Below, in pieces: positions 1 through 64,000 of a stretch of DNA of 64,000 nt. The position numbers were made by a program, and so were the translations under genes. The notes under the pieces are model-generated. The model saw only the letters and a program-made list of their open reading frames with translations, made no database searches and was not told where the DNA came from. Each line of letters starts with the position of its first letter. Within the stretch, counting starts at the first letter, position 1. The DNA is from Tubulanus polymorphus (taxonomy: Eukaryota; Animalia; Nemertea), in assembly GCF_964204645.1 (NCBI RefSeq), contig NC_134025.1, forward strand, positions 28,004,299 through 28,068,298. Direction: 5' to 3'.

Positions 1-3000
1 AAGATTACATGTTCCGAGTTCGAGCAAAGAATGAGCACGGAGTTAGTGATCCGACTCATTCTATTACCGCTCACAGATCGAAGTGTAAGTTAATATTTTC
101 TGTGTTAACGAATAGGAAATTAAGCGCATGTTTCGTTATTTGTAATAAATGCATTCACAGGTCGCCTGGTTTTAAATGAAATCATCATCAGTCAACAAAT
201 AAACTACACATTGGGTAGAATCTCCAAAACGATATCTGAAATTATCTATCAATGATCATCAATTATTTATCAACTCGCCAATCATAAAATCAAAATCAAG
301 TAAAATCTTCTTTTCAAGTGATCTTATATTTGTAATTCATCCATGATTTGCCTCTCTCTCTTTCCGTTTAGCTGCCTTTTTCCCCAATCAAATCCATGAC
401 AAACCACAGCTATCTGTTCTTTCTCGCGATTCGGCGGTTCTTTCCTGGTCCGTACCCTCCCAACCCTCACACCTCAGAGATCTACCATTCATGTACGTGA
501 TCGAGGCTCGGGAACATCCCAGTCGAGATTGGAAAGAAATAGCTCAGGATATTGAAGATCCGACATTTGATCTCAACAAGCTGTCTCGTGATAAAGAATA
601 TTCATTCCGTGTTCTGGTAGAGAATGAATATGGATTAAGTGAACCTTCACCGAGTGTCACATTATCGAGGAAAGAAGGTATGGATGAAGTCAACTCAAAT
701 ATTAGTGGTTTCAGATACTGATCTCTTCGAGTAACCAAAATGATTTTATGAATTCTGTTTATCTTCGTTTTCAAGCCGACTACGTACCGCGAACACCGAC
801 AGATAAACCTCGGCTTTCTGATGTAAAGGCTGAAACGCTCAGACTTAGCTGGGATGAAGTGGAACCGCCGCCGATGGCTACAGATTCTCCTGTGACGTAT
901 ATAATCGAAACACGAGATTCTAAATATAACTGGACGACATACGTAGACGGTAATATTCCTGAGATTTTCGCCCGGGTTCCCAGTGAAGATCTTGCTCACT
1001 CAAGTTTTTATTTTCTAGATATAAAAACTACGTCTCATGAAGTGAAGGCAGCGCCAGATATCGAACATGCCTTCCGTATTAGAGCAAAAAATATATTCGG
1101 GAGAAGTGATCCATCACGACAAGTAACCGTTCCGAAACGACAGGGTACGTGCGTGCCATAACCTTCAATATTAGACCTTCCTTTATGGTTACGATTTTCC
1201 GCTATGAATTTGATATCATTTCTTTTTACAGTATTCCCCGATCCAATTTCCGATAAACCATTTTTGATGGAACTAACGCCGGATACAGTGAAATTGTCGT
1301 GGAGAAGTCCCCGCGCTGCCTTCATGTCCGAGCTACCATCATCTGCATACTCCTACATATTAGAGTATCGCCAACCACCCAGTGATAAATGGAAAAAATT
1401 GATCGGTGGATTAAAGGAAACTTCATTTACGATAAGAGATCTTGAAAAGGATAAAGAGTACATGTTCAGAGTTCGAACACAGAATGATTTCGGCACTAGT
1501 GAACCTTCAGCCCCAGTATTGAGAGCAAAACTTCCGGGTAAAAATCCTAAAATGTTCTTATATTCAGAATTTACCTGATTATATGTAATTATCAAAAAGT
1601 TATCTGTTGTTTTACTTTGCTAAGATCACGCAGCTATTCGAAGAAGCAGAAGTAGAAGTCGTGAACCATCTCCATGGCGCCTCCCATCGGATGTCAGCAC
1701 AGGTAAGATAGAATCACTAGTATTTAAGAAATAGACGTTGATAATGAAAAGGAAAATATTCACTGCGTTTCGTCTTTCAGATGTGGCTCCTGAATTCACA
1801 AATGTTGAGCAAAATGTTGTCTACGGTGTTCAAGGACAACCCGTCAAATTAAATGCCAGTTTGAAGGCCTATCCTGAACCTAAAATCATGTGGTTCCACA
1901 ATGAAGATAAAATAGATTTAGGTATGAGAATACACTAATAACTCTTACTTGATTATTTTTGACAAAAATATGTCTAAGATATAACCATAAATTCTAGGTG
2001 GACGTTGTAATTCGTATAAGTCAGCTAATGGTCAGTACAGTTTAGAGATCGAAAAGATGACGTCATCTGACGTTGGAGCTTATCGGATATATGCAGAGAA
2101 TTCTCAGGGTATTGCAGAACATACATTTAAACTCGAATTAGCTGGTAAGTTTAGTTCGTTCAAATCGAGATGTTGTAGCTGATGTATCATAGAAAATGCC
2201 TAATTCTTGATATTTTTAACAGATCCACCGATTTTCTTGGAGCCTATGAAAAATACCGATCTCCGTGTTTGGACCTACGGTAAACTGGATTGCCGGATTG
2301 ACGGATTGCCGTACCCGGAGGTGAAATTCTTCAAGGACTGGCACCCATTGACTCAAACAGCTAGGGTCAAGGCCAATAGAACGGATTATGATTATTGGTC
2401 GTTAAATTTTGATAATACGATTTTACTGGATGAAGGGATGTATATTTGTGTTGCTGAGAATATAGCCGGTAAAGCGTATTGTGTAGCAAATCTAGTTATC
2501 GAAGGTAAAATACCAGTTACTTTTCATACCGGGGTATCTTAAGCTAAATTGCTTGTCTCGTCACAAGGCTAGTGTATTCTAATTCTATTTCGCAGAGAAA
2601 CCACCACTTATCGATGTAAAGTTCAAACCGACGCATATTTCTGATTTCTACTACGTTTTAGATGAAATTGAAAGGTTCGTAATTCTTTTTATTTATAAGC
2701 ATTTACAAGCTTGCCAATACTAAAAACCTGTAATTTCTTGTTAGATTTCTTTTTATTAACGTCTTTTCGAATCGTTATTCGTATATAGGGGTTCTCACGG
2801 TGTAATTAGGCGTGTTGTTGAGAAGAGCACCGGAGTCGAGTTTGCGGCTAAGTTTTTACGAGCTCGTGACGAGAATCAGAAAAACGAACTGAAACAGGAA
2901 GGAGACGTGATGTCTTTACTGTCACACCGTCACGTGGTCAGACTTACCGACGCGTACGAGATGAAAAAGAACATCGTTTTAGTCATGGAGTTGTATCCTT

Positions 3001-6000
3001 TTCATCGTATCAACCCGCAATAGTTGATAGAAAACATTAATTCCGAAATTTTTTTATATCAATTTTGAAAATGTGCACTGAATAATGACGCGTTATGGCA
3101 TTATGTAGGGCTGTTGGTGATTCATTTACCTTGACCAAATGTGCAGATTGACCGGCGAAGAATTACTAGACTGCATTATTGATAAAGACAGGCTGACCGA
3201 GAGCGAAGTGGCTTACTATATACGCCAGGTTTTAGAGGCGCTACAACATTTACATTCTAAAGGAGTAGTTCATCTAGATGTTAAGGTAAATCGCGATAAT
3301 TGGCCTTTTTAATCGTTCAGTTATTCAGCGTTATTACCCATATTATTATCACCATCGTATTCAATCTTTAGCCTGAGAATCTACGTTTGTCGACACCCGG
3401 AGCTGATGACAACATCAAACTGATTGATTTCGGATTTTCTCGTCGTATTTACAAAAATAAGGAAACGTTTGTCGATCTTGGAACACCGGAATTTGTTTCT
3501 CCGGAGATTCTTCGCCAGGAACCAGTAACGCACGTAGCTGATACCTGGAGTGTAGGTGTACTCACATATATACTGTAAGTTACATTCAAAAATTTATTGC
3601 ATCCGATGACGTGTATGCACTTTGGTTAGATATATCCTAGTTGTTTTTGCCCTCAGGTTAAGTGGTATTTCACCGTTTTTGGCGAGCAGTGACCGTGAAA
3701 CCCTACTCCGAATTAAAGACGGTCAATGGTCATTCGATGAAACTGCTTTCGAAAATATTACAGACGAAGCGAAAGATTTTATCGATAAATTATTAGTCTC
3801 GAAACCGAAGTAAGTGATACACCTTTTCATTTGAACATTCATATAAAGATGATTTTCTTACTTCAATGACAGCTTCTTCGATTCCAACTTTCTAGATCTC
3901 GTATGACAGTAAAGCAGTGTTTTGAACACCCGTGGTTACAAGTATCCAAACAAAGAGGACAAGGAATAAAGATAAATACTGAACGACACAAAGTCTTCAG
4001 CAGTCGTAGGAAGTTCGAGGTAATGTAAAAAAAGGGTTTGAGAATAATATCAATATGAATCTAAATCGGGATGATGACTTTTACTTTTTATTCTTCCATT
4101 ACAGTGCTCACAACATCAAGTGAACACAATCGTTTTCCATCGTAAAATGTCGCTTCTAATGGTGGAACTTCCAAAATTACAAATACCTTCTATCGAGGTT
4201 TTCGATGAACCAGAAGATAGAAGACCGCAATTGATAAACAATGTGAATGCTTCATTCAACGGTCTTATGCCGGGTAGTCCCACTGGTATAATTCTAAGTC
4301 CAGGAACATCCCGGGCAAGTTCAGTTGAGCCTTCTGAATTCGGGGATTCCGAATCCACAGATCCAGGCTTCGATGACGAATGTCTAATGGAAGATTGGAT
4401 ACACCAATATGGTCCAATACCTCATAAACAAAAACATAAGCTTGACGACCTCAAATTTGATGACTTTTTCGGAAAACAGCTCGGGGTTGAAAAACCGATA
4501 AATCCACCCACGTCTCCTGGTAAAAAGAGAATGAGAAAGATTAGTTTCAACAACGAACCACCACCTATCGGCGATACTGGTAAGCGTGCTGAATGGAAGA
4601 AGCATGTTCATGCTGATTACTGCTACAAAATGACTGTCTTTGAAAGAAATCAACTAGCAGCTGAGAATGAAAATGCTTTGTCAATGTTGTTATTTTTGCA
4701 TGAGAATGGTACGAGCCTTCTAGAAGGTCCTCCCACTGCGAAAAAATCCCCGCCAGTTCCAAGGCGTTTTTCAGATTACGATTGTTCATTTGATCTCGAT
4801 CAAAATTCGAACATCTGCCCCAAACGGAAACTACAGCCTACATTAAGTTCTATCACTAAATTACTACTGATGCATAAAACGAAACAAGTTGTTCATTTAA
4901 TGGAGAAATGTCAGTCTCAATCCCCTGAGAAACGTAAAATTTCGATCGATTGTTCCCATTCAGAATCAAAAAGGTCTCCGGATTTAAGCCATTCTTCCTC
5001 ATGGTTGACCGTTGTAAAAGCAGCTATGCTTTTTCGTCGTAAGAGCTTACACTCTGGGGCTTTTGAGCGATTATTCGATACCCCTCGGCATTTACCACCA
5101 CTTTCTAAGCCCGAAAGATACTGCAGGGAAACGTTTGCTCTGCTCGGGGGTCTCATTGTTGGTATAGTACTGGCTTTACTTTACCGTGCAGCCCAGTACA
5201 TTCTCTTTAGCTAATTCCCGTGCCTGGTGCCACTGAGAATATGCATGCGAATTTATATTTTTCTAAGAAAATCTGATGAATATTCAAATAAAGATTGCAT
5301 GTTGCTTGATTTTGTTTTTAGTTATTGCATGTTATCAGGATATCAAACTGTTTTCATTCTAATCTTAACGTAAGTTTTTTCCACGACTTTTTTCGAATTA
5401 CTCTTTGAGCCGAATCCACACGTTATTGAAGTATCTATCGACAGTCATTTTCAAAATTACAGTTGAGGCACCCGTATTCAAAGAAACTATCAAAGACAAA
5501 GCCTACGATGTCGGTGAAAATGTGACGTTGCACTGTCAAGTTATCGGAAAACCAGCCCCGACTGTTTACTGGTATCGTAATGATGAACCATTATGGGACG
5601 GTGAACGCATCCGAATACAACATTCCAAAGATACCGGGCATACATCATTAACAATACTGAACACACTTCCTCATGATTATGGCATCTATAAATGCGTGGC
5701 TAGTTGTGCTGGAACGAGAGCTGTAACAAAAGGCAGACTGTTCCTCGGGGGTAATCAAATATCTTTTTCGGAAAATGAACAAGAAAATTGGTTAATACTC
5801 GTCGGCTTCATCTCCATGAATCAATTTGTTTTTTGTTTTAGATGTTCCTGGTCGCCCCGGTAGACCTGTAGTGCAACAAGTTTCGTCAAGCCAGGCTTTG
5901 ATTATTTGGGAGGAGCCAGATCATGACGGCAACGGTCACATATTGAACTATCGGGTCGATTACCGAATCAATGTTGGTAAGACCATCCGAGTTGTCTTTA

Positions 6001-7796
6001 ACTTTAGAACTAAGCAATTACAAATTCTAAGGCTTTGGGCCTCATTTGGATCGTCTGATTTTTCAGGTCAGGATAAATGGTCGATCGCCACGTACACGAT
6101 TGACGAATGCGCACTCGTCAGTGGTCTACGTCCAAATACAGTTTACAGGTTCAGAGTCTGTGGCCGTAACAGATTCGGTGTCAGTCCATACAGCTGGGCC
6201 TCGATTGAGGTTCGAACTAAATCTAAAGGTAATGTTAATCTTGCAATCTTGTTTATGATTTCACAATAAAAATGAATAGTGATGCTTTTTTATCGTACTC
6301 TTTATTATCACGTACAGGCTCCTCCAAATTGAAGATGGACCGGGAAACGAAACGAATAATTCTACGATCACAGCGAGCGAAACTAGATGATTCGGATGGA
6401 GATGACGAAGATGACGTGACTCCGACGGCGAGTAGAAGAGGGTCGACTGACAGCATTGAAAATAACGTACCGGCTACAGATGTCGCATTACAGGAAACCG
6501 ATCCCAAAAAGCATTACGATATTGAAGGACAAATTGAAGGGTTAGTTGATAATGAGATTGAATCCCCCAATGGGTCCCTTTCTGTGCATTTCCATTAGTT
6601 TTAAATCCTTTATCATTTTAGTGGACATTTCAACGTTGTTGTTAATTGTCGATCAAAAACGAAGAACAAAGAATATATTGCCAAAATTCTTGGTTATAAC
6701 GTCGATACTAAAGATTCGATTCTGAGGGAGTATCACATCCTGAAAGCTCTGAATCATCATCGAGTCGTTCAACTTTTCGAAGCTTATATCACCGATAAAC
6801 AGCTTGTTTTGATCTTCGAGAAACTGCAGGGTGAAGAGGTCACCCGCGCAATCTCGTTTAAGACGAGATATAACGAAGAAACTGTTTGTAGAATAATACG
6901 ACAAGTGGTAGCCGCACTGCAGTACCTCCACAGTTATGGAATAGTTCATTTGAATATTCAACCGGGAAATATAATGCTGTGCAGCAGGAGACGTCTGGAT
7001 CTGAAAATCATCGATTTCACTTGTGCTCGTGCAATAACCGACGAAGAGGGAGAAACATTCGGAAAACTTGGAATGCCAGAATTTATGGGTAATTTCCAAC
7101 AACAAACCTAGAACAATCACCATTAAGTATCTCTACATTTAGATATAAATATATTTGATTTACTTCCAGCCCCAGAAATGATATCTAATAGACTAGTTGG
7201 TTGTGCCGCCGATATTTGGAATGTGGGCATTCTAACGTACATAATGTAAGCTGTCAGAGAGTTCATTACGTTTTCTATTGGAGGAATAAATTTTTAAATC
7301 TTTAAATCTATGTTTATTTGCCAGGTTAAGCGGAGAATCGCCATTGTTAGGAACTGACGATGAGTCTACGTTTGATAATATTACGCGACTGAGATATGAT
7401 GCCGATCAATTGTACGGACATATAACCAAGGCGGCATTGAAATTCATGTATAACATCCTTAAAGTTAATCCAAGGTACGACGAATGATACCTCAATTTTC
7501 ATAATGGAATATAAAGTAGGCTATTCGCTAAAGATTTTGTTGATTTCATATTTTACAGCGAACGGTTATCGCTTGATGACTGTGTAGAATCAAGATGGCT
7601 GAGTCTCTCGGAAAATATGGTGAAAAGACGCCGGGCGAATAAATTCATTACGTCTAAACTCAGGCATTTCCAGGAGGTTTATACCGCTCGTCGCAGAGCG
7701 TTGGGCAAACCTTCGGAAGAGCTGCTTGGTTCATACGCCCATATCAAACGAGCCTCGTCAGTTGATTCGGACACAGAAACTGACTTCACTTTATAG
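1..7796 (+). CDS. Obscurin/UNC-89/SPEG-type giant muscle protein, 3' part (FN3 repeats, Ig domains, two Ser/Thr kinase domains); 5'-truncated, multi-exon
   Basis: Phase-consistent exons inferred at about <1-84, 372-677, 776-949, 1019-1144, 1232-1537, 1625-1702, 1781-1921, 1998-2144, 2223-2504, 2596-2674, 2789-2992, 3147-3285, 3372-3574, 3657-3809, 3896-4019, 4105-4579, 5463-5750, 5842-5976, 6067-6228, 6318-6540, 6622-7088, 7170-7245, 7325-7474, 7559-7796 (TAG). FN3 motifs (YxFRVRAxNxxGxSxPS), Ig I-set motifs (D.G.Y.C.A.N), kinase 1 (FAAK, HLDVKPEN, DFG, GTPEFVSPE), then Ig-FN3-kinase 2. The tandem-kinase tail is characteristic of the obscurin/UNC-89/SPEG family. Confidence 0.88.
2993..3146 (+). 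other. U12-type (minor spliceosome) GT-AG intron in kinase 1
   Basis: 5' splice site GTATCCTTTT, branch point TACCTTGAC at 3127-3135, 11 nt before the end of the intron; removal restores VMELLTGEEL. Confidence 0.88.
4105..5214 (+). CDS. Alternative terminal exon of the obscurin-like gene (read-through of donor at 4579/4580) encoding a C-terminal transmembrane anchor
   Basis: ORF stays open for 211 codons past the G|GTAAGC donor and ends FALLGGLIVGIVLALLYRAAQYILFS* (TM about 5134-5184); AATAAA at 5287-5292. Confidence 0.65.
   Translation, partial: CSQHQVNTIVFHRKMSLLMVELPKLQIPSIEVFDEPEDRRPQLINNVNASFNGLMPGSPTGIILSPGTSRASSVEPSEFGDSESTDPGFDDECLMEDWIHQYGPIPHKQKHKLDDLKFDDFFGKQLGVEKPINPPTSPGKKRMRKISFNNEPPPIGDTGKRAEWKKHVHADYCYKMTVFERNQLAAENENALSMLLFLHENGTSLLEGPPTAKKSPPVPRRFSDYDCSFDLDQNSNICPKRKLQPTLSSITKLLLMHKTKQVVHLMEKCQSQSPEKRKISIDCSHSESKRSPDLSHSSSWLTVVKAAMLFRRKSLHSGAFERLFDTPRHLPPLSKPERYCRETFALLGGLIVGIVLALLYRAAQYILFS
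5242..5331 (+). promoter_or_regulatory. Three TGCATG (Rbfox-type) elements flanking an intronic AATAAA
   Basis: TGCATG at 5242-5247, 5296-5301, 5326-5331; AATAAA at 5287-5292. Confidence 0.6.
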
Positions 7797-8118
7797 AAAG
7801 GATCGACCTCCGGTTTTAAGCGCGCTCGTTGTTTTTATCTCGTTTGTTATGATATGAAATTATTAAGTTCAAACTGAACATGCAAAAATTAAATAAATCA
7901 CCTCTGAAAATTGATTAGGATATGTAGCCAAATTTGAAAAAGAAAAACCAATGAAGTAATGTTGACTTTATTTCCCTGTAGTTATTTGCTGTGTTTATTT
8001 TGCATTTTGAATAAATATGATGTACGTACCTAAAAATTGAAGTTTGTTTATCTAACATATAATCTCCCATGGATCAATTCTTGCGCGTGATAAGGCAAGT
8101 TGAGGACATGTTCGATGT

Positions 8119-8312
8119 CGGGCGAATAAATTCATTACGAATTATTATTTTCAAAACTCAGACATTTCCAGGAAGTTTATACCGCTCGTCGCAGAGCGTT
8201 GGGCAAACCTTCGGAAGAACTGCTTGGATCATACGCCCATATCAAACGAGCCTCGTCAGTTGATTCGGACACAGAAACTGACTTCACTTTATAGAAAGGA
8301 TCGACCTCCGGT
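8119..8312 (+). repeat. Direct duplication of the 3' part of the obscurin-like last exon (copy of 7632-7814)
   Basis: Near-identical to 7632-7814 including the TAG stop (8292-8294); 11-nt insertion at 8140-8150 and five substitutions. Confidence 0.95.
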
Positions 8313-10431
8313 AATATCGCATTTCGTCTGAAATTCGGAACGAACACCCGAGACACGATTATTCTAAATGAGTGAATTTCTCTTGTCAAATCAGATATGA
8401 TTTTCTTAAGTAATAATTGCTGGGGGTCTTATAGGCTAATCAAATATATCTTACGTAATGCCTGGTGCAATGGGACGTTACTTAGAAATTCTACATCTCA
8501 AATACTGTTTTTAGGACACGAGCAAAAGACGGCTTTACGTTAACAAAAACGAATCAGTCGATAATGAATTAGATGATTATCTGATATTTTGCTAGAAATA
8601 ACTGAATCAATCAATCGATAATAACTTGTTTGTTGACCGCTATAGTAATCATCGCACTTTACAATAGTAATACATGAAACCACAAAATTATTTGAAATAC
8701 CATTGCAATACAAGAACATAAAACTGTAAGAGACATTATTCAATGGCAAAAGCTTCAAGCTTTCCTAAAAAATTGTTTTGAGCGGGTTGGCGTTTAAAAG
8801 CGTCGACGGATTCCCGAATACGGTAAAACATTCCATCCAGTGATCGTTATATTCGCCGGCCTCTTCAGGAACCTACCAAATGCGTTCATCATTTGACTCG
8901 AAATTTACGTTCAATCAAGTTGGTTGATATTTTTTTGGTACTTAAGCGATTATTTACATACATCAGTGAATTGATAGCGCTTTTCGAAAAATGGGCCCGG
9001 TTAGACAGCTTAAAGTAACTTCAAGATGATGCGGTAGTATCCAGGATGAAAAAGAGGTCCCCCATAAATGTTGCCATAGTTCTACTTCATGAATACCGTA
9101 ATTCGCCACCTGTGACTGAATAATGATGAAATAAGGGAATATTTTTTATTAACGGTCCCAAACACGTCGGGGATTCCCTTAAGCACTTGCATACCTCTGG
9201 GATCCTACGGAAGCCCCTCCTTTCTAAAGGTTTGATTATTCTAAAGTTAGGTTGGGTATATCGGGCGAAAACCACTTCAATACGTAGCTAAGATGCTGAT
9301 CTAACACCCAAAGCAGGGTTTCCCGCCGATTTTCCGCGGTCATATATGAACTAAACGCTCGAATTTCTTGTTTTTACTATGGGATGTAGAAGATTTTGGA
9401 ACGGTTGTCTGAAGTCGTTTACGTAGATGTTAGATGTATAGTAACGCTATTGCGGTTAAGTATTCTTAACCAGCCGCTGAACGAGAAATAATCTATAGTT
9501 CCTTTGAATATCCCCAGGAAAATGTATCACACTCATTGAGAGCTGTTTGCTATAAAAAAAACATATTTACGCTTATATGTGCTAATACGTATCATAGGAA
9601 TTATGTACGTTTTGGCTCGACAGTAATTAATGCATTTTTATGGAGATAATTAAAAGGAAAACATGCATTCCAGAGTTACTAACATAAAGGTTACCAGTTG
9701 GGTTGGGAAAATTACTGCAGATTCAGACAAAATTAAAAATAAGATGCAAGCACTAAACAATCATGTATAAATAAACTTCGATGTTTACCAAGAAATTCTA
9801 GCTGGTTTGTACATCAATGAATGGATAAGCTTTTTATAGTCTGGTACTAGTATCATATGTAGAAGGTTATATATGTATATGTATATATAATTATTCCGAT
9901 GGTTGAATATGTTGGGTAGAGGGTAGCGGTACGCGTGCGTGTTTTGCAGCATGTGTACCGTCTGTAGTACTCGGTACTGATCATCCGTCTGCGCACAACA
10001 GTAAACCGTCGGTTTCCATATAACGATCGAACGCAAGCCATCGATTTTATCAATTGATTTCTAGGGAGCTATCGAGTAGGAGAATACGACGGAATCAGCG
10101 ACAATTTCGCTTTATAGAACGTTCTGAGGAAACCTTCGTTAGTCTTCGTCTTGATACAGGCGTATGATATATGTTACACGCGAATCTGGATTACTTGGAA
10201 AAACCACCTCACGAAATATTCGTCCTAGAATCTTGTGTCGTGTTCGAATATCACAAACGTGTTATTACTGCATGGCGCTGAATAGTACTCTATCTAATTT
10301 GGGATTCAGTGTTCAGATGATGCGACCAAGCTGGCGCGTCGCCTATTTCGAGATCGTTAGCGCTGTAGTTACCATAGAAACTTGAAGACGATTGTCAGTC
10401 GACTGGTCGAATCAGTTGGATAATTTGCGAA

Positions 10432-12305
10432 ATGCGTGTCGTGCCAACAAGTATCATGAGAATGTTATACTGTCTTTTTACATTATTGTGCATTTCGCGG
10501 TTTTCTATGTGCATTGAGTCGTCGGAAAATGCAACATCTTACAGCGATGGTCGGTTATCCCTGAAGGTGGAGCCACCGGAATTGAACAATCTATCCATGT
10601 GGAACGGTATCGCTGTAATAACTATCAATTATCAATTGAACAGCGAAAATCCCTGGAAGTTGAAGACTATCCCAGAAGATGATGAATTGGTAACCATTGC
10701 TGGTAGCGGACAATTTCTGCTCAATGGAACGAATGACCTCTCTGGGACAAAATTCAGTGGATCCATTAATTTGACTCTAAGCGGGCATTTCATAGGATTT
10801 ACGAATCTCAAGTTCTACATTAGTAACGATTCAAAAGTATTATCTGATAGCAACAGTACTTGGTACAGTTTACCGGTGGAATATTTAGTTACAGTAATTC
10901 GTCCGGATAGAGTCGTCGACATCATATTCAGAGTTACCATATCAATATTGGTGGTTATCAGTATGATACTAATGGGAACCAAAGTCGACCTTGATGTGGT
11001 GAAAGAAGTACTCAAACGACCTTATTCCCCTGCAATTGGATTCTTTTGTCAAGTTCTTATAATGCCTTCCGTACGTATATACACATGTCCATTCTTTTAT
11101 ATTCATCCAATAGACTCTAATGGGGGATTCGGTTTAGGGTCCATGAATCATCAAAATGCAAACGGTTTCAGTTTATTCCTCATTTCCGCCTACTTAAATT
11201 CATTGATCAATGAATTTAAGTATGATCATGATCATTATATATTGAAAAACGTGTTCATTATTTCTCATGTAAATTTTATTATAATTGTGACATATAATAT
11301 TGTAGTTGGCATATGGCATATCAAGGATGTTGCGGCTGAATCCTAGCCAGGCGCTGGGTATATTTGCAACAGGCTGTGCTCCCGGTGGTGGGCTCAGCAA
11401 CACGTATACATACCTGTTGGATGGTGACTTATCGCTCAGTATTACTATGACAGTTATATCAACGATAGCTTCACTAGGCAAGTAATTACCACTGTGAATG
11501 CATTTAGCACTGTGAGAATTAATTACCTGTCATTATTTTTCCTGCTTATCTGATCGTGTGCGTTGGATTTTTTTCAAACGACAGAATCAATCGACGGGTT
11601 GTGTGGAAGCCTTGATCCGAATTTCTTTTTCGTTTTTTTCCAGGTACTATACCCCTTTGGATGTTCACTGTAGGGCGGCTTATTATTGAAGATATTCCTA
11701 ATAAACAAATGAAGATTCCATATAAGAATATATTCATAACTTTAGTTATGATAGTAATACCCGTTGGTATCGGATTATTGTTACAGAAGAAAGCTCCCAA
11801 GTGGACAAAGATGTTGAGTAAATGTATGCGGCCTTTCCTCATAGTCCTCATACTATTCATTGCTTCATTTGGCATCTGGGTCAATGTTCACATGTTTAAG
11901 CTGTTTACCCCAAAGGTCGTAGGTGCGGGTATGTTACTTCCTTGGACGGGTTTCGCGCTGGGGGCCTTAATACCTTTTATATTCCGCCGTCCCATTACAC
12001 GTGTCTTTACCATTGCTATAGAGATCGGCATCCAGAATACTGGCGTGCCCATATTACTATTATTACTATCCCTAGAGGCTCCTCTCGGTGATTTAGCTAT
12101 CATCGGTCCAGTAGCTGTTGCTTCTTTCACTCCGTTCCCGTTACTAATCGCCATAGCTTTCGTTGAAATTCGTAAAAGATGGTGCAATCGTGGCGAGCGC
12201 CAGCTGGCTGTCGATGACGATAAAGGCGAATACATGAACGGAGATGCGACCAGAGAAGATGCAGATTTTGTGAACATTCAACTAACGAATGGAGTAACGG
12301 ATTAG
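10432..12305 (+). CDS. SLC10-family sodium/bile acid cotransporter-like protein with extended N-terminal luminal domain (P3/SLC10A3/A5-like)
   Basis: Exons 10432-11070, 11306-11477, 11644-12305. Signal-peptide-like N-terminus; SBF motifs LMGTKVD..VLKRP..PAIGFFCQVLIMP, GCAPGGGLSNTYTYLLDGDLSLSITMT, TIAIEIGIQN; AATAAA at 12597. Confidence 0.92.
11478..11643 (+). other. GC-AG intron in SLC10 gene
   Basis: Donor TAG|GCAAGT and acceptor TTTTCCAG|; this junction keeps the frame (ASLG-TIPLWMF), the nearby GT 4 nt downstream does not. Confidence 0.85.
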
Positions 12306-43656: not shown

Positions 43657-46600
43657 TCAGATTTTCATGAGGTACATAGCTATTTCCATAGGATCCAAGT
43701 GTAAAACTTGATCAACGGCTAGAACTCTTTTTTCATACATCAATGAAATGGTCATCTCATTAATTTCGGATATTTTGATGTCGGTGAATAACGTTTTTAA
43801 ATCGACCCGGCCTAAACTGGTTTTACAATTCATGTTACCCAGAGGATAGTTACATTCGTAGCCGATTCTATTCAGGAGAAATACAATGCCGTTAATACCC
43901 GTTCCGTAATTCCTTAACGTTTTCAAGTGAAGAAGGTTAATATCGCAAGGTAATGCTACTTTTAAAGGCGAGAAACTCGCGCGGAATGAACGAGCCGTCA
44001 TCATTTGTATGAAATTCACAATCGGATGTTGAAGCGCGTTTTGAAGACTATGCGCCAACAGCGAAGGATGTGAAATGGTTGGCATTCGATTTTGGGGAGC
44101 TCGCGATTCGTGTCGTTCTAACAGTAAAATGAATTTACTCAGAGTTAACTGATTATCATAGACGCCCTCGCCGAGACCTCGATTGTCGTCGTACATCAAC
44201 TTGCGGTCTAACATCACTTCCATCCAACCTTTCTCAAGGCTAGCGACTCCGTGTGATTGTCCGGCCAGAATACTGAGCCTAGTAGAAACATCTTCGATAT
44301 ACATCATAGATGTCATCGGATAGTAATTACCCCGACTATGTAAATGCTTTAAATACTTTCGCTTCATCATTTGAAAGCCGTTCATATCCGTATAGAATAT
44401 TTGTTCGTTATCGATATTTGTGGTCAATCTCATTATGATTTCTTTGTCGTTTATCGAAACTTTTCGATTTTCGTTACCGATATCGATGAAGTTACGTATT
44501 TCGAGGGCTTCGCTTTGAAGAATGGGCGAATGAATTATTCGAACGACGTGCTTCAAAGCGGGATATACGACGTGTATTTCCGTTCGGACGTTTCCGCTGA
44601 TTACGCGAATTTCAGGCGTTCTATAAAAATCCAAATTCTCGGCAGGTCCCATCGGGTAAAATAGATACGCGCCACTGCCCTGGGAAATATAGGTGAGGAA
44701 TTGTATTTTAACTAGCGTCAAAAGACCGTCGCGTTTAGTTGTAATAGACTGCAATAAACCCGTTTTCGGAGAAAATGATGCGAGGATAAAATTGTTTTCT
44801 AAAACCAATTCATCGTTAGGATTGATTTTATGCAGTGTAAATGCGCCCAAATTCCGATATTTGGCCTTTTTTTTATTCGTAAGTATCGAGGAAATCTTGG
44901 CTAGATTACCGACTGGTGGCTCATTTTCAAAACACCGAATGGTATAACGACTAAAACCTAACGCTTCAATTTCAACTTGAAATATCAATTCATACTCGGT
45001 TTCGGATACGGGTAAAATTTCCGATTCTACCCAAATGGGGCTGATTTGACTTTTCACCGGTTTCGAAAATGAATCAACGACTAAAATATTCAGATTTCTA
45101 CTAACTATTTGCAAACGAACGATTTCCTGACGTTTCTTAGCGACAGAATTGAAAAAGAATACATTCGTTCCGAGAGAAGTGATGAATACTGATTTTTGTC
45201 CAGGAAAAGGATCGTCGACGCCTCTCGCGTCATCGATATCTAAAAACAGTCCGGAGCTTTCGATTTTTCTGGTGCCTTCCTCTTCTTGTTGTTCGCCGTT
45301 CGACAGCAGGAAACTCGCCGAAGTTATCTTCACAGCATTCGATAACCCTTTAGCTTCCCACAGTTTTAACAGGTAATCGTCGATCGTCTCCGGTTTCGAA
45401 GTTCCGGTGATCGCGTCGTGATGCTGAAACAACGCTAAATTCTCCCTACACGAGGTTAATCGTTGCGCGTTGTGAATCTCTGACGTGAAGATCTTTTCGT
45501 GGACGCTCGAATACGCGACGGCTAACGAATTCAATATCTCCGCATCGCGAACATTCGATTCTAATTCGCGCGCTAGCTGTTTATAAAACGGCCGCGTAGT
45601 AAAGTAACCAGTCCAATAATCGGCCTCTCGATCCGTGTACGGAAAAAAATCTCCGCTGAGAATCGGAATTTTAGATTTTTCGAGCAATTGATTCGATTCG
45701 ATTCGTTCGTGTAAAACGTTGAAATAATCGGTTAACGTGCCGAAATGAACCTCAATATTCAGCGATGGTCGAGCGTTGATGTACTGCATTAATTTCATGA
45801 AGTTCGTATATTGTTGAGACCATTCTTCCGGTCGGTCGTAGCGGAAATCGTCGCCTAACGGCATAAATATCACGTTCGCCTTGTAATTTTCGGCTTTACG
45901 GCGGAATTGGTCGACTAAACGATTCGAGTAAAGTTTCACATTTTCCGGCGTTATCGTCGTAGCCATGCTTTCCGTGTATTCGCCGTTGACCTTACGAAAA
46001 TCGAACATCAGACAAATAAACGGAGTCGGACCGCACGAATACTTCACGCTGTATAACATGTAAGGCATCATATGACACAATGTCTGCGAATCGCCTTTAC
46101 TGTCCCAAATTTGACGCCATTGGAATTCTAGATTCTGTCGTTCTCTCAACATATCTTTCACGTCTTCGTGCACGCGTAGAACGACCATGTTACGAACACC
46201 GGCGCGGTTTAATAAATAGGGTACAGTCGCCGAATAACCGAATGGATCGGGCGACCAATTGACTTTCGGTCGAACGCCGAGGTTTTTCATCACCCACTGA
46301 TGTCCTTCGATCATTACGTCGATAAACGAAGTGAACGTGGTCGACGCTTCGTCGGGCGCCACCCAACCACCGTTTACTATTTCCAGACGACCTTCTTTGA
46401 TCAACGATTTAAACCGAGATTTCGTTTTCTCGTCGATGTCGTTCCACCACATCGCCAGAAACACCGTTTCGCCCCAGATAAACGTCATATTCTTATAAAT
46501 ATGCATCTGTTGAACGAGGTTATCGAGAATCGGTTTCGTTTGTTCCTGGTAGTAATCGTCGATCGTACGAATCCAGCCGGGGTCCGTATGAGAATGAGGT

Positions 46601-46953
46601 ATCACGAACACTTTCAATTTCGTCGCATTATTCACGACCGGTTTTTGTTTAGGTCCGACTAATAAAACGCGCGGGTCACGAGGGTGACTGGCAACTTCAT
46701 CATTCACCCGTTCTAATATGTAATGAGTATTTAGTCCGCCGATCGGTTCCGATTTCTGCCCAAATACGCATTCGCTCTTCCGATCCTTAATGATCGGTGC
46801 ATGTCCTTTAATCGGCCCGAAATGTGATTCGACTAGTTTTGATCTGCGCAAATTATTTCTACGCTCAAACACAAATTTGTCATGAAATATATACACTATC
46901 AACAATACAATTAGCAGAAATGCCAAAGAAGCAATTCTGTGAGAGAATTTCAT
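43657..46953 (-). CDS. Golgi alpha-mannosidase II (GH38, MAN2A-like), single coding exon, 1098 aa
   Basis: Type II N-terminal TM; Zn-binding HSHTDPGW; nucleophile region WSPDPFGYS; acid/base GDDF; YWTGYFTTRPFYK; FQHHDAITGT; MLDR..DDNRGLGEG. Likely 5'UTR intron 47096-47633 (GTAAGT donor, TTTGACAG acceptor). Confidence 0.95.
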   Translation of the reverse strand: MKFSHRIASLAFLLIVLLIVYIFHDKFVFERRNNLRRSKLVESHFGPIKGHAPIIKDRKSECVFGQKSEPIGGLNTHYILERVNDEVASHPRDPRVLLVGPKQKPVVNNATKLKVFVIPHSHTDPGWIRTIDDYYQEQTKPILDNLVQQMHIYKNMTFIWGETVFLAMWWNDIDEKTKSRFKSLIKEGRLEIVNGGWVAPDEASTTFTSFIDVMIEGHQWVMKNLGVRPKVNWSPDPFGYSATVPYLLNRAGVRNMVVLRVHEDVKDMLRERQNLEFQWRQIWDSKGDSQTLCHMMPYMLYSVKYSCGPTPFICLMFDFRKVNGEYTESMATTITPENVKLYSNRLVDQFRRKAENYKANVIFMPLGDDFRYDRPEEWSQQYTNFMKLMQYINARPSLNIEVHFGTLTDYFNVLHERIESNQLLEKSKIPILSGDFFPYTDREADYWTGYFTTRPFYKQLARELESNVRDAEILNSLAVAYSSVHEKIFTSEIHNAQRLTSCRENLALFQHHDAITGTSKPETIDDYLLKLWEAKGLSNAVKITSASFLLSNGEQQEEEGTRKIESSGLFLDIDDARGVDDPFPGQKSVFITSLGTNVFFFNSVAKKRQEIVRLQIVSRNLNILVVDSFSKPVKSQISPIWVESEILPVSETEYELIFQVEIEALGFSRYTIRCFENEPPVGNLAKISSILTNKKKAKYRNLGAFTLHKINPNDELVLENNFILASFSPKTGLLQSITTKRDGLLTLVKIQFLTYISQGSGAYLFYPMGPAENLDFYRTPEIRVISGNVRTEIHVVYPALKHVVRIIHSPILQSEALEIRNFIDIGNENRKVSINDKEIIMRLTTNIDNEQIFYTDMNGFQMMKRKYLKHLHSRGNYYPMTSMMYIEDVSTRLSILAGQSHGVASLEKGWMEVMLDRKLMYDDNRGLGEGVYDNQLTLSKFILLLERHESRAPQNRMPTISHPSLLAHSLQNALQHPIVNFIQMMTARSFRASFSPLKVALPCDINLLHLKTLRNYGTGINGIVFLLNRIGYECNYPLGNMNCKTSLGRVDLKTLFTDIKISEINEMTISLMYEKRVLAVDQVLHLDPMEIAMYLMKI

Positions 46954-47647
46954 AGTTTTATCTGAAGCTAGCCAGTATCCAAACTATCCAGTTGATCACA
47001 GTATATAGAACACATTAATTGTTCGGTACTCAGAGCACAGTTCGACTTCATCATTCCATGGATCACAGATCACTCGGTTGGAAGAATGACCAATCCTGTC
47101 AAATGAAAGAAAGATACCATACCGGTATTATCATTAAGTAAACTTTCGCTGTTATCTGTTAAACATGATGAATGTGATTTTACTCTGAACAAATGCCGGA
47201 GGATACAAACCGTTCAGAAAGCAAACATCGGAGCAACTGCATTTAATGGTGGTAGTGTCTCTATAACCCACACAAAAATTTCTGGCACATGTTCTGAACC
47301 TCAATCTATGTGAGACTCGTAGTATCCAAAAACATGTTAGAAAATTGCTAGGTAAAAGCATTGATGTCTAGTCTGAATACCAGATAATCTGGGGGACAAC
47401 GAGACTTGATTGAGGTCGTAAAAAATACTCCCTATAATTGCTTTTTGTTTGTTTTTGTTGCCAGCATCCATGTTAACACTGCTGGCTGGTTGCCAAAAAC
47501 CCAACGTATTAATAGGCAGTCCTTATGACAGTGACATACATTTTGAATGACTAATATTGATGAACCAAACATCCAACATTCATTATTGGTTTCTAAATGA
47601 ATCCAGATTATTTGTGGTGTATTTGGTACTTACAGGGAATAATTTAC

Positions 47648-54512: not shown

Positions 54513-55325
54513 ATGGTCGAACCTATCTTTGATTATCAGTTTAGACTGATACTGATCGGTGATAGTACAGTCGGAAAGTCGTCGTTATTGAAGTATTTTA
54601 CTGATGGTAAATTTGCTGAAGTTTGCGACCCAACAGTCGGTGTAGACTTTTTTGCTCGGTTGATAGAACTGAAAAATGGTGTACGAGTGAAGTTACAGTT
54701 GTGGGATACAGCTGGGCAGGAACGATTTAGGTAACCGTCATTCTTCATCAGTGCTGCGCAAGTCAAAATGAGGTTGCAAAGCTTCACCTACCTTTCTTTA
54801 ATTAAATTGTGAATCTTGGAATCAATTGCCTTGTTTCTGCTGAATTAGGCAATGAACTATTATTCTGTAACTTTATTTCTGATCTTCTTTTTCAGATCAA
54901 TTACAAAGTCATATTATCGGAATTCTGTCGGAGCATTGTTAGTTTTTGATATTGCTAAACGTAGCAGTTTTAACCATATCGGGGACTGGTTAACCGAAGC
55001 TAAATTCCATATTGAGCCACACAAAGCTGTTTATTTGATAGTTGGTCATAAAGCTGATATGGAAGATGACCGGAAGGTCACCTACAAGGAGGGTAAAAGT
55101 TTGGCAGAACAGCATGGATTGAGTTACATCGAAACTTCAGCTGTGACGGGCCAAAATGTAGAAGAGTCTTTCTTACGTGTAACTCAAGAGGTTTATGACC
55201 TTATGGAAGCGGGGAAAATTCAAATCGAAGATGGTTGGGATGGGGTAAAGAATGGTTATTCTAGACCTAGAGAGACATTTCATTTACAAGAAGGTGAACC
55301 CGAAAGTGGAGGTTGTTGTGGATAA
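54513..55325 (+). CDS. RAB39: Ras-related small GTPase Rab39
   Basis: Exons 54513-54730 and 54896-55325; [69 protein letters not shown]; C-terminal CC prenylation motif (GGCCG*). Confidence 0.95.
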
Positions 55326-62666: not shown

Positions 62667-63881
62667 TTATGAGAATGAAACATCATACTGTGCATTCATA
62701 AAATTAGCAAAATCTGTTGTGTTACAGGCTTGTAAGCGTAATTGATCCATCTTACTGGACAGTAGCTTATCAAGATCATCAGGAGATGATAGCTCTACTG
62801 AATTATTCACTTTCATCGCGACTTCATCAACTAGCAATTTAGCGATCGTGTGGGTTAATTCAGCACAAATAACAGTTTTATCAATTTGCCAGTGGGTGTT
62901 CCACTTTTGGCCAAATGACAAATACACCAGAGGACTGGGTTTAGGTCCCTGTTGGCTTTGGTATAAACCCAGAGCTCTTTTAAATGATCGAAAGCAAAAT
63001 ACTTTAGTCGGTTCGCGTCGGTTTACTGAAGTTGCCTCATTTGTACAGCCTATACCAGCAAAAAAGACCTTACTGCGGCACAAACGATACACAAAGATGT
63101 CACATGTTTGACTATCAAAACAAACTACTAAACCTCGCCTCAAACCTTCAAGCGCTTTTTTAACATTCTGTAAGCCTGATTCCAACTGTGGGTCTACAAT
63201 TTCAGGAATATTTGGCAATATGATACAAACTGCATCAGATGGGCCATATAATTCAGTAGTGTTCTCGGCAGCAAATTCGTTTTCAACTTGAGAACAGATT
63301 CTCCACATATTACCAAAAAGATCCTCTGTCCTAACAGTTCCCCCTTTATACCTGATTTCTAAGGATAGTAAAGATTGGCAGCTTTGAGAGCAACTTTGGT
63401 CATTAACAATTTGATCATTACTTTGAATTGTAACATTGGTTAATGTTGGATTCCACTCTGCAACAGTTTCAGGGATTGTTACATTATGAGGAGAGTTGCT
63501 GTACCCTGGCTGAGTTTCCATTGGAATATTTTCTTGCTGATTTTGTTTTTCCTCATCAACGAATCGAAAATATTTGTGCAAATCATCTTCATCTGGTACT
63601 GGTAGTTCTTTGATATATTTGGATTTTCTTATGGCATTTCGAAACCGTGCCTTCATTTCTGAGATATTGATGTCGGAAATGTTCTTAGTTGCTGAACCTT
63701 TCAACAAACACCAATCTTTGAAAACCTTAGCATCTTTTGATTCGTTGTAGTCCGGTCTGCCTGCATGTACCCATCTAATACGAAATATTCTCTGATCTTC
63801 ATCAGACCATTCCAAACTGGGGCCATAGTTTCTGTCACACAATTTTTCTTCCAAAAACTGCACGAGATTTTGACGAGACAT
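62667..63881 (-). CDS. Interferon regulatory factor (IRF DNA-binding domain + IAD/SMAD-like domain), single coding exon as far as visible
   Basis: ATG at 63881 just after acceptor TTCTTATTTCAG (63888); LEW...IFRIRWVHAGR...DAKVFKDW...KARFRNAI DNA-binding domain; IAD motifs RGL, RLCRSKVF, KVF, VYLSFGQKW; C-terminal SVELSSPD. Confidence 0.92.
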   Translation of the reverse strand: MSRQNLVQFLEEKLCDRNYGPSLEWSDEDQRIFRIRWVHAGRPDYNESKDAKVFKDWCLLKGSATKNISDINISEMKARFRNAIRKSKYIKELPVPDEDDLHKYFRFVDEEKQNQQENIPMETQPGYSNSPHNVTIPETVAEWNPTLTNVTIQSNDQIVNDQSCSQSCQSLLSLEIRYKGGTVRTEDLFGNMWRICSQVENEFAAENTTELYGPSDAVCIILPNIPEIVDPQLESGLQNVKKALEGLRRGLVVCFDSQTCDIFVYRLCRSKVFFAGIGCTNEATSVNRREPTKVFCFRSFKRALGLYQSQQGPKPSPLVYLSFGQKWNTHWQIDKTVICAELTHTIAKLLVDEVAMKVNNSVELSSPDDLDKLLSSKMDQLRLQACNTTDFANFMNAQYDVSFS

Positions 63882-64000
63882 GATTTTCTGAAATAAGAAC
63901 AATAAATCTATCGATTAAAAATCCCGCAGTTTCTTACTTAAAAACACTACCCTCAACAGAATATATCATTACTAGTCAGCCACTGACTCGTCGGTGGCAA

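Follow-up and report, generated by a model that had tools for sequence, protein, structure and literature searches.

Three-way splice choice after kinase 1 of an obscurin/UNC-89/SPEG-type gene, including a read-through isoform with a predicted tail anchor

A single 5′ splice donor directly after kinase 1 of an obscurin/UNC-89/SPEG-type gene from the nemertean Tubulanus polymorphus is the site of a three-way RNA switch: transcripts are spliced to the Ig exon ahead of kinase 2 (isoform A), spliced to a short stop exon (isoform B) or continue straight through the donor (isoform C). The read-through isoform is real and expressed at the RNA level, and it is a new variant within a known family. This route probably encodes a tail-anchored protein, whose giant Ig/FN3-kinase 1 part would be held at the cytosolic face of the ER/SR.

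The window, i.e., the whole stretch of 64,000 nucleotides that was analysed, contains, at bases 1-7796 of the plus strand, the 3′ end of a gene for a giant Ig/FN3 kinase; the start of the gene lies upstream of the window. By Pfam, the order of domains is three FN3, two I-set, kinase 1, a linker of ~190 residues, Ig, FN3 and kinase 2 (Table 1). A spliced model starting at 2223 is open for 552 residues up to the donor at 4579 and then for a further 579 until the stop at 7796. Serial Ig and FN3 domains 5′ of the first kinase (PK1) at 347-2504 and a C-terminal tandem of PK1, disordered interkinase region, Ig, FN3 and second kinase (PK2) were both found, which are the features that mark members of the Obscurin/UNC-89/SPEG family. 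The C-terminal layout of this family is as published (PMC10129394, in excerpt), and PMC3114093, likewise in excerpt, serves as family background only. Membership of the gene in this family rests on architecture; the SH3-DH-PH RhoGEF module, which obscurin/UNC-89 has and SPEG lacks, would be encoded 5′ of the window. None of the searches of the sequence collections used returned a named obscurin sequence. The best PDB matches of the kinase 2 exon were CDPKs (76 bits), followed by titin (71) and DAPK (68), and the kinase 1 exon gave 15 kinase matches at 50-53% identity, unnamed, one of them with DAPK-like domains.

Table 1 Features of the 3′ end of the gene, in window coordinates.
Feature	Position	Strand	Basis
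Three FN3 segments	347..1578	+	Pfam fn3 on ORFs 347-718 (2.8e-07), 706-1158 (0.009), 1162-1575 (1.1e-10)
Two I-set Ig domains ahead of kinase 1	1735..2504	+	Pfam I-set
Kinase 1 exons	2596-2674, 2789-2992, 3147-3285, 3372-3574, 3657-3809, 3896-4019	+	Joints in X2/X5, Pfam Pkinase
Shared interkinase exon part, 158 codons, predicted disordered	4105..4579	+	Joint 4019>4105
Alternative 5′ splice donor CTG/GTAAGC, phase 1, three fates	4579..4585	+	Joints and read-through contig in X2
Read-through extension, isoform C tail, 211 codons ending TAA	4580..5214	+	Translation; X2 and X5 contigs
Basic segment WLTVVKAAMLFRRK, low-confidence predicted helix	5002..5043	+	AlphaFold helix 300-313, pLDDT <50
Predicted transmembrane helix FALLGGLIVGIVLALLY	5134..5184	+	KD 2.59; AlphaFold helix; inside X2 contig
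AATAAA, candidate proximal polyadenylation signal	5287..5292	+	Sequence; use inferred from contig depths
48-nt exon, in-frame TAA at 5360 and 5366, isoform B end	5322..5369	+	X2 joints
Interkinase Ig exon	5463-5750	+	Pfam I-set 9.9e-20, joints
Interkinase FN3 exons	5842-5976, 6067-6228	+	Pfam fn3 6e-11, joints
Kinase 2 exons to stop TAG	6318..7796	+	Joints, motifs, Pfam

In kinase 1, the motifs FAAK, HLDVKPEN and DFG are all intact, and the first Gly of the glycine loop is replaced by Glu. The RRKF segment following this kinase is, we assume, a DAPK/titin-like regulatory tail. Kinase 2 carries YIAK, HLNIQPGN, in which the catalytic Asp is changed to Asn, and DFT; without the catalytic Asp it is a predicted pseudokinase. 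An earlier note on this DNA had described kinase 1 as intact and kinase 2 as a pseudokinase, which agrees with the catalytic motifs kept in PK1 and the catalytic Asp lost from PK2. In fly and worm, PK1 is a pseudokinase and PK2 is probably active, while in mammals both are active (PMC10129394, in excerpt). The ecdysozoan UNC-89 pattern of a PK1 pseudokinase and a canonical PK2 was not found here: the order of the kinases (2596-4019 canonical, 6622-7474 without the catalytic Asp) is opposite to that given for fly and worm in the same excerpt.

Six sequencing runs were considered, none of which is recorded as RNA. Since GT..AG introns are skipped throughout the gene in X2 and X5, which come from different studies, these two runs were taken as RNA. 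X3 and X4 consist of unspliced pieces, were taken as DNA and were excluded from expression; X1 may be the window's own source, and X6 had no matching records, which counts neither for nor against expression. Fifteen joints are found among those listed for X2, and 14 are common to X5. Ten X2 records lie on 2200-8400 and ten on 4030-5760, and the long contigs skip every other intron shown, so that the contig over the tail is no genomic carry-over.

The upstream X2 contig, which reaches 7,253 nt 5′ of 4579, ends in a branch at this position, from which three paths leave. In isoform A, the joint 4579>5463 (depth 39.2) keeps Ig-FN3-kinase 2 in frame; the phase 1 splice at 4579/4580 to the Ig exon, as placed by the earlier note, is thus used in X2 and opens onto the 579 further residues of the model. 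In isoform B, the joint 4579>5322 (76.9) gives kinase 1 an end of 13 residues, reading IACYQDIKLFSF past the junction residue. Isoform C is represented by the contig 4550-5350, which runs straight through the donor at a depth of 184.4. The joints of A and B were found in one run only (X2). The X2 segment 5321-5369 (139.2) either splices 5369>5463 (87.3) or runs on unspliced over 5340-5491 (42.2). Both the acceptor at 5322 and the donor at 5369/5370, which are absent from the earlier note, are used in spliced contigs, and the latter serves read-through transcripts too. The earlier proposal of a two-way swap, in which the kinase 2 module is exchanged for an anchor, holds in that read-through and the direct splice to 5463 were both seen, but with the 48-nt stop exon the choice is actually three-way. 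Translation of kinase 2 from the 5322-5369 exon or from the 3′ UTR was rejected, as an in-frame TAA stands 1 base ahead of the junction and as many as 18 ATGs come before the first in-frame Met opening kinase 2. Frames terminate normally at TAA/TAG, giving no cause to suppose a reassigned TAA.

X5 retains a single path at the donor, namely read-through. The X5 contig 4151-5128 spans the donor with >400 bases to either side, differs at 7 letters and ends 5 bases before the membrane segment, which is covered in X2 only; X5 has no contig over 5129-5700, and this region was excluded as evidence. RNA coverage of 4580-5214, as anticipated in the earlier note, is therefore provided by both runs, with X5 stopping short of the membrane segment. 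Depths in X5 amount to 10-11 over the kinase 1 exons, 8.8 over the tail and 5-6.5 over the kinase 2 exons, which fits continuity of the tail from kinase 1. The contigs yield no single molecule from kinase 1 to the tail, no poly(A) site and no true levels.

Depth is given as a single figure for each contig and measures expression poorly, and all depth readings are accordingly rough. In X2, depths balance at two nodes (116 vs 120 and 129.5 vs 139). The AATAAA that had been reported soon after the tail stop starts at 5287, 72 bases downstream. Read-through at 5321 is implied to be about 62 as compared to a mean of 184 over the contig; this fits an end ahead of 5321 for many C transcripts, and the depth arithmetic suggests that it lies after this AATAAA. 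By rough depth estimates, read-through accounts for between a third and 60% of the flow past the donor, and kinase 2 is in frame in only about one quarter of the RNA that enters the Ig exon. The idea of a splice/polyadenylation switch can be kept in part: the depths point to an ending near AATAAA, but some RNA passes this signal and, as part of the C/B RNA splices 5369>5463, the switch is not purely one of polyadenylation.

Depth also bears on the alternative that the tail is part of an independent small tail-anchored protein, which would use an internal start and be unfused to kinase 1. In-frame ATGs with A at -3 are present at Met 4147 (355 residues) and Met 4630 (194 residues), the summed X2 depth at the donor (about 304) clearly exceeds the 108 averaged over the upstream 7,253-nt contig, and C. 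elegans unc-89 has three promoters (PMC12812942, in excerpt). However, X2 has neither a branch nor a loose end from 4105 to 4550, its depth step is explained by 3′ bias, and the depth of X5 is flat on entering the exon (10.3, then 8.8). We regard a separate small protein as highly improbable and read the tail as the C-terminus of the kinase 1 protein.

The coding character of the read-through region was also assessed from the sequence. The donor at 4579/4580 scores 6.1, inside the range of the gene's other donors. The ORF 4078-5214 (+) contains no stop and proceeds for 211 residues past 4579 until the TAA at 5212-5214; ORF and translation agree on the 211-codon frame that had been described beyond the skipped donor. 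Between 2223 and 7796 the other 14 introns measure 79-154 nt compared to 883 nt here, so the intron had rightly been called unusually long. In-frame read-through at the other 14 donors extends for 1-37 codons in 13 cases and for 97 in one, where the 90-nt intron is stop-free. Base shuffles were stop-free in 1 of 200,000 for the 883-nt intron and in 1 of 200,000 for the tail itself, in keeping with the earlier view that such a frame is unlikely by chance. The GC content of the tail is 42%, as compared to 31.5% in the other introns and 32% in 5215-5462, and falls from about 0.5 to 0.18-0.28 right past the tail stop (after 5250). Codon usage in the tail prefers the open frame (0.035 vs -0.021 and -0.018 per codon), with a weaker signal than in the upstream part of the same exon (0.035 vs 0.118). 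The open frame is far beyond chance, its GC resembles that of exons and its codon bias is specific to the frame.

The scan for short motifs covered four classes, and phospho-type matches are taken as hints only. RKISF, which resembles a PKA site and an RVxF motif, lies just 5′ of the switch donor at 4534-4548 (reached in 130 of 5,000 shuffles), and the tail contains three R/K-R/K-x-S sites, a number reached in 182 of 5,000 shuffles. Beyond the tail TAA, the frame remains open for 52 more codons (5215-5373), which would be added by stop read-through; this extension ends moderately hydrophobic (19-mer 1.73), and its chance by composition is about 0.02.

Several further observations were made in the gene and in the rest of the window. 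In kinase 1, the donor GTT/GTATCC at 2992/2993 scores -3.2 as compared to 4.9-8.1 for the other 13, and though weak, it is spliced in both X2 and X5. The 90-nt intron 5977-6066 within the interkinase FN3 is in frame and stop-free, yet removed in X2 and X5. X2 transcripts stop at 7886. The end of the last coding exon including the stop (7627-7814) is copied ~490 bases downstream at 8114-8312, with 162 nt at 97%; X1 merges the two copies into a contig of depth 73 vs 38, so the duplication is present in the DNA. On the minus strand, a 415-codon frame at 62667-63914 is stop-free, holds IRF DNA-binding and IRF-3 domains (Pfam) and forms an interferon regulatory factor gene that is apparently intronless amid an intron-rich region, and a single 1,108-codon frame at 43657-46983, apparently intronless as well, resembles a Golgi alpha-mannosidase II. 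Frames at 10378-12305 (+) and 54849-55325 (+) are taken by us to resemble an SLC10 bile-acid transporter and a Rab GTPase, respectively.

Six variant places were found in the tail, three silent and three missense, with no stop and no indel; the silent share of 3/6, where 22% would be expected, falls short of significance (P=0.13). Of the 9 variant places listed over 2200-8400, 6 lie in the tail, a clustering that may reflect loose constraint. No linker/tail homologue was found at 647-2000 or at 202-646 residues, nor any Pfam family, and an Atlas search of the linker/tail gave no usable match, with a recognition of 1496, below the known-family level and uninformative either way. A PDB match of the tail to occludin (E 0.48) was dismissed as chance, and the lone tail match among 1.84 billion representatives, to 24 residues of a repeat protein, was set aside. 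Metagenome scanning with the kinase 2 exon confirmed 0 of 208 stretches; with the kinase 1 exon it gave 80 loci of 37-47% identity, taken as unrelated kinases by identity alone. None of these collections, which are poor in animal sequence, contained a relative of the tail, and as they lack close relatives of the kinase exons too, the tail blanks say little. The tail may be restricted to this lineage. It is unlikely to derive from a transposon or repeat, as one even-depth X1 contig spans 2200-7706, and the contacts of repeat families with the tail amount to no more than chance-level arms.

A stop upstream of splice junctions is the usual mark of decay substrates. In B, and in C molecules continuing to 5463, up to 8 junctions follow the stop, and these RNAs may be partly degraded. 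It could then be argued that B and C are unproductive and lower the dual-kinase form, that the open frame is either a relic or under loose constraint, and that functional anchored protein does not accumulate. The isoform B exon is a textbook-looking stop exon, the stop in part of the C flow is followed by 8 junctions, the tail variants are clustered and half of them missense, and the collections searched returned no tail homologue. Nonetheless, the 211 codons are stop-free in three haplotypes (the window, X2 and, for 183 of 211 codons, X5), a clean anchor, a 9-residue tail and an AATAAA are unexpected in a relic, and X5 keeps read-through as its sole path at the donor. Unproductive B and C RNAs are thus considered quite unlikely, and translation of isoform C is the preferred reading.

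The predicted C-terminus of isoform C looks like a tail anchor. As the earlier note had stated, a hydrophobic stretch of 17 residues (FALLGGLIVGIVLALLY, mean Kyte-Doolittle 2.59) is followed by 9 residues, RAAQYILFS, with one basic residue, and the stop. It is the single hydrophobic segment in the 369 residues tested (19-mer 2.18 vs 1.05 for the next best), so that by prediction a lone hydrophobic helix with a short tail behind it lies at the C-terminus. When the residues of the tail were shuffled 20,000 times, its best 19-residue hydropathy score was matched in 71 cases, in 16 of these near the C-terminus. T occupies codon position 2 in 11 of the 17 codons and position 1 in 3 of 17, and GC is 45%, which argues that the stretch is no by-product of T-rich DNA. 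In an AlphaFold model (single-sequence, mean pLDDT 42), the anchor helix at 335-368 is the only confident helix, with block pLDDT values of 81-94 over 341-369; in the shared interkinase part the values are <50 over 46-150. Hydropathy and modelled helix are hence consistent with the transmembrane tail predicted earlier. With its three glycines the helix is marginal on the Hessa scale (+0.4 to +1.0 over 19-21 residues, -2.5 over 17). A KASH-type tail was rejected, as the 9-residue end lacks PPPX, the KASH motif.

Upstream of the anchor, the basic segment WLTVVKAAMLFRRK had been described as amphipathic and calmodulin-like. The basic segment is present, but its amphipathic character is weak, with a hydrophobic moment of 0.32 ranking 78th among 356 windows. 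Its W, V and L fit the 1-5-10 calmodulin spacing, and its helix is modelled at low confidence. A putative calmodulin-like nature of 5002-5043 is weakly supported.

Taken together, we propose that the one donor sets the C-terminus: A would be a tandem with the predicted pseudokinase, B a soluble kinase 1 and C an anchored kinase 1. Many C transcripts would be polyadenylated after the AATAAA at 5287, and the remainder would carry the kinase 2 exons as 3′ UTR. Translation of C would give kinase 1, about 370 mostly disordered residues and the tail anchor, whose helix would insert post-translationally. High hydrophobicity and the one basic residue behind the helix would favour the ER/SR: in mammalian cells, ER targeting is favoured when the helix is hydrophobic and the tail charge low (PMC5450235, in excerpt), and since the rules stem from such cells, ER/SR is a first guess. 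At the membrane, the intact-looking kinase 1 would act on its own, the predicted pseudokinase 2 being absent. The long Ig/FN3 part might tie the membrane to the myofilaments, making an ankyrin go-between unnecessary. More speculatively, the basic-basic-x-Ser sites of the tail might let cAMP signalling tune the anchored form.

Alternatively, isoform C might be anchored in the mitochondrial outer membrane or the sarcolemma instead of the ER/SR. The helix is short (17 residues), glycine-rich and has basic residues on both sides; DMPK tails go either to the ER or to mitochondria, and those of mouse and human are not alike (PMC2778554, in excerpt), and UNC-89 kinases influence mitochondrial form, according to excerpts of PMC11487192 and PMC13242403. 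With a mean hydropathy of 2.2-2.6 and one basic residue behind it, however, the helix falls into the ER class of PMC5450235 (excerpt), and these other membranes appear rather unlikely. We therefore retain the ER/SR as the proposed site.

A more far-reaching possibility, which we put forward tentatively and with considerable doubt, is that this lineage built the myofilament-SR tether into obscurin itself, that the main product is a giant tail-anchored kinase, and that one donor picks between anchored, soluble and reversed-polarity tandem forms. If true, and if such tails hide in the interkinase intron of other invertebrate obscurins, they would supply the missing ankyrin-free link to the SR. 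Obscurin-family proteins organise the SR around the myofibril. UNC-89 and fly obscurin have no ankyrin-binding domains, and the nematode SR link is given as unknown (PMC12812942, in excerpt); where worm and fly lack this domain, an isoform with its own anchor would be a direct, testable SR route. The place to look elsewhere is the intron before the interkinase Ig, which would be passed over by gene models following the dual-kinase form. Naturally occurring soluble, anchored and tandem forms with a reversed active/pseudo order would also offer a test of the second kinase's purpose.

As to precedents, no membrane-spanning obscurin was found in the literature searched by title and abstract start, in which subscription literature is thinly covered, and the word 'transmembrane' has 0 occurrences in the 2026 obscurin review PMC12812942. 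Within this search, the earlier statement that no TM-bearing obscurin/UNC-89 isoform has been reported is upheld; a tail of this kind could already be present among the automated isoform models for related animals. The gene shares with vertebrate obscurin-B and SPEG and with Drosophila and C. elegans Unc-89 the Ig/FN3 array and the PK1-interkinase-Ig-FN3-PK2 end (PMC10129394, in excerpt), as well as heavy 3′ alternative splicing. Unlike this family, it has FN3 domains in series ahead of kinase 1 and an isoform that ends in its own predicted membrane helix, and in contrast to fly and worm Unc-89, as portrayed in that excerpt, PK1 is canonical-looking and PK2 lacks the catalytic Asp.

Spliced tails that set the membrane are known from other muscle proteins. 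DMPK is a small kinase of another family. A three-form splice logic is already known from it: 3′ splicing of isoforms A-F yields tail-anchored or short cytosolic forms, as in C versus B here (PMC2778554, in excerpt). Unlike the present gene, DMPK has no giant Ig/FN3 arm and trades away no second kinase, and no sequence relationship was seen. The muscle protein SLMAP has spliced tail anchors that set its membrane (PMC2712456, in excerpt), but is neither a kinase nor a sarcomeric Ig protein. Closest in proposed outcome, a myofilament-bound giant protein tied to the SR, is the pair of vertebrate obscurin-A and small ankyrin-1 (sAnk1, ank1.5). Excerpts of PMC2172649 and PMC12812942 agree with the earlier note that this link is indirect, as obscurin-A reaches the SR via small ankyrin-1, which bears the membrane segment. 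Obscurin-A likewise swaps the kinase end for a non-modular C-terminus (PMC12812942, in excerpt). In that pair the helix resides in the ankyrin (PMC2172649, in excerpt) and both kinases are missing from obscurin-A, whereas here the predicted helix lies in the giant protein itself and kinase 1 is kept.
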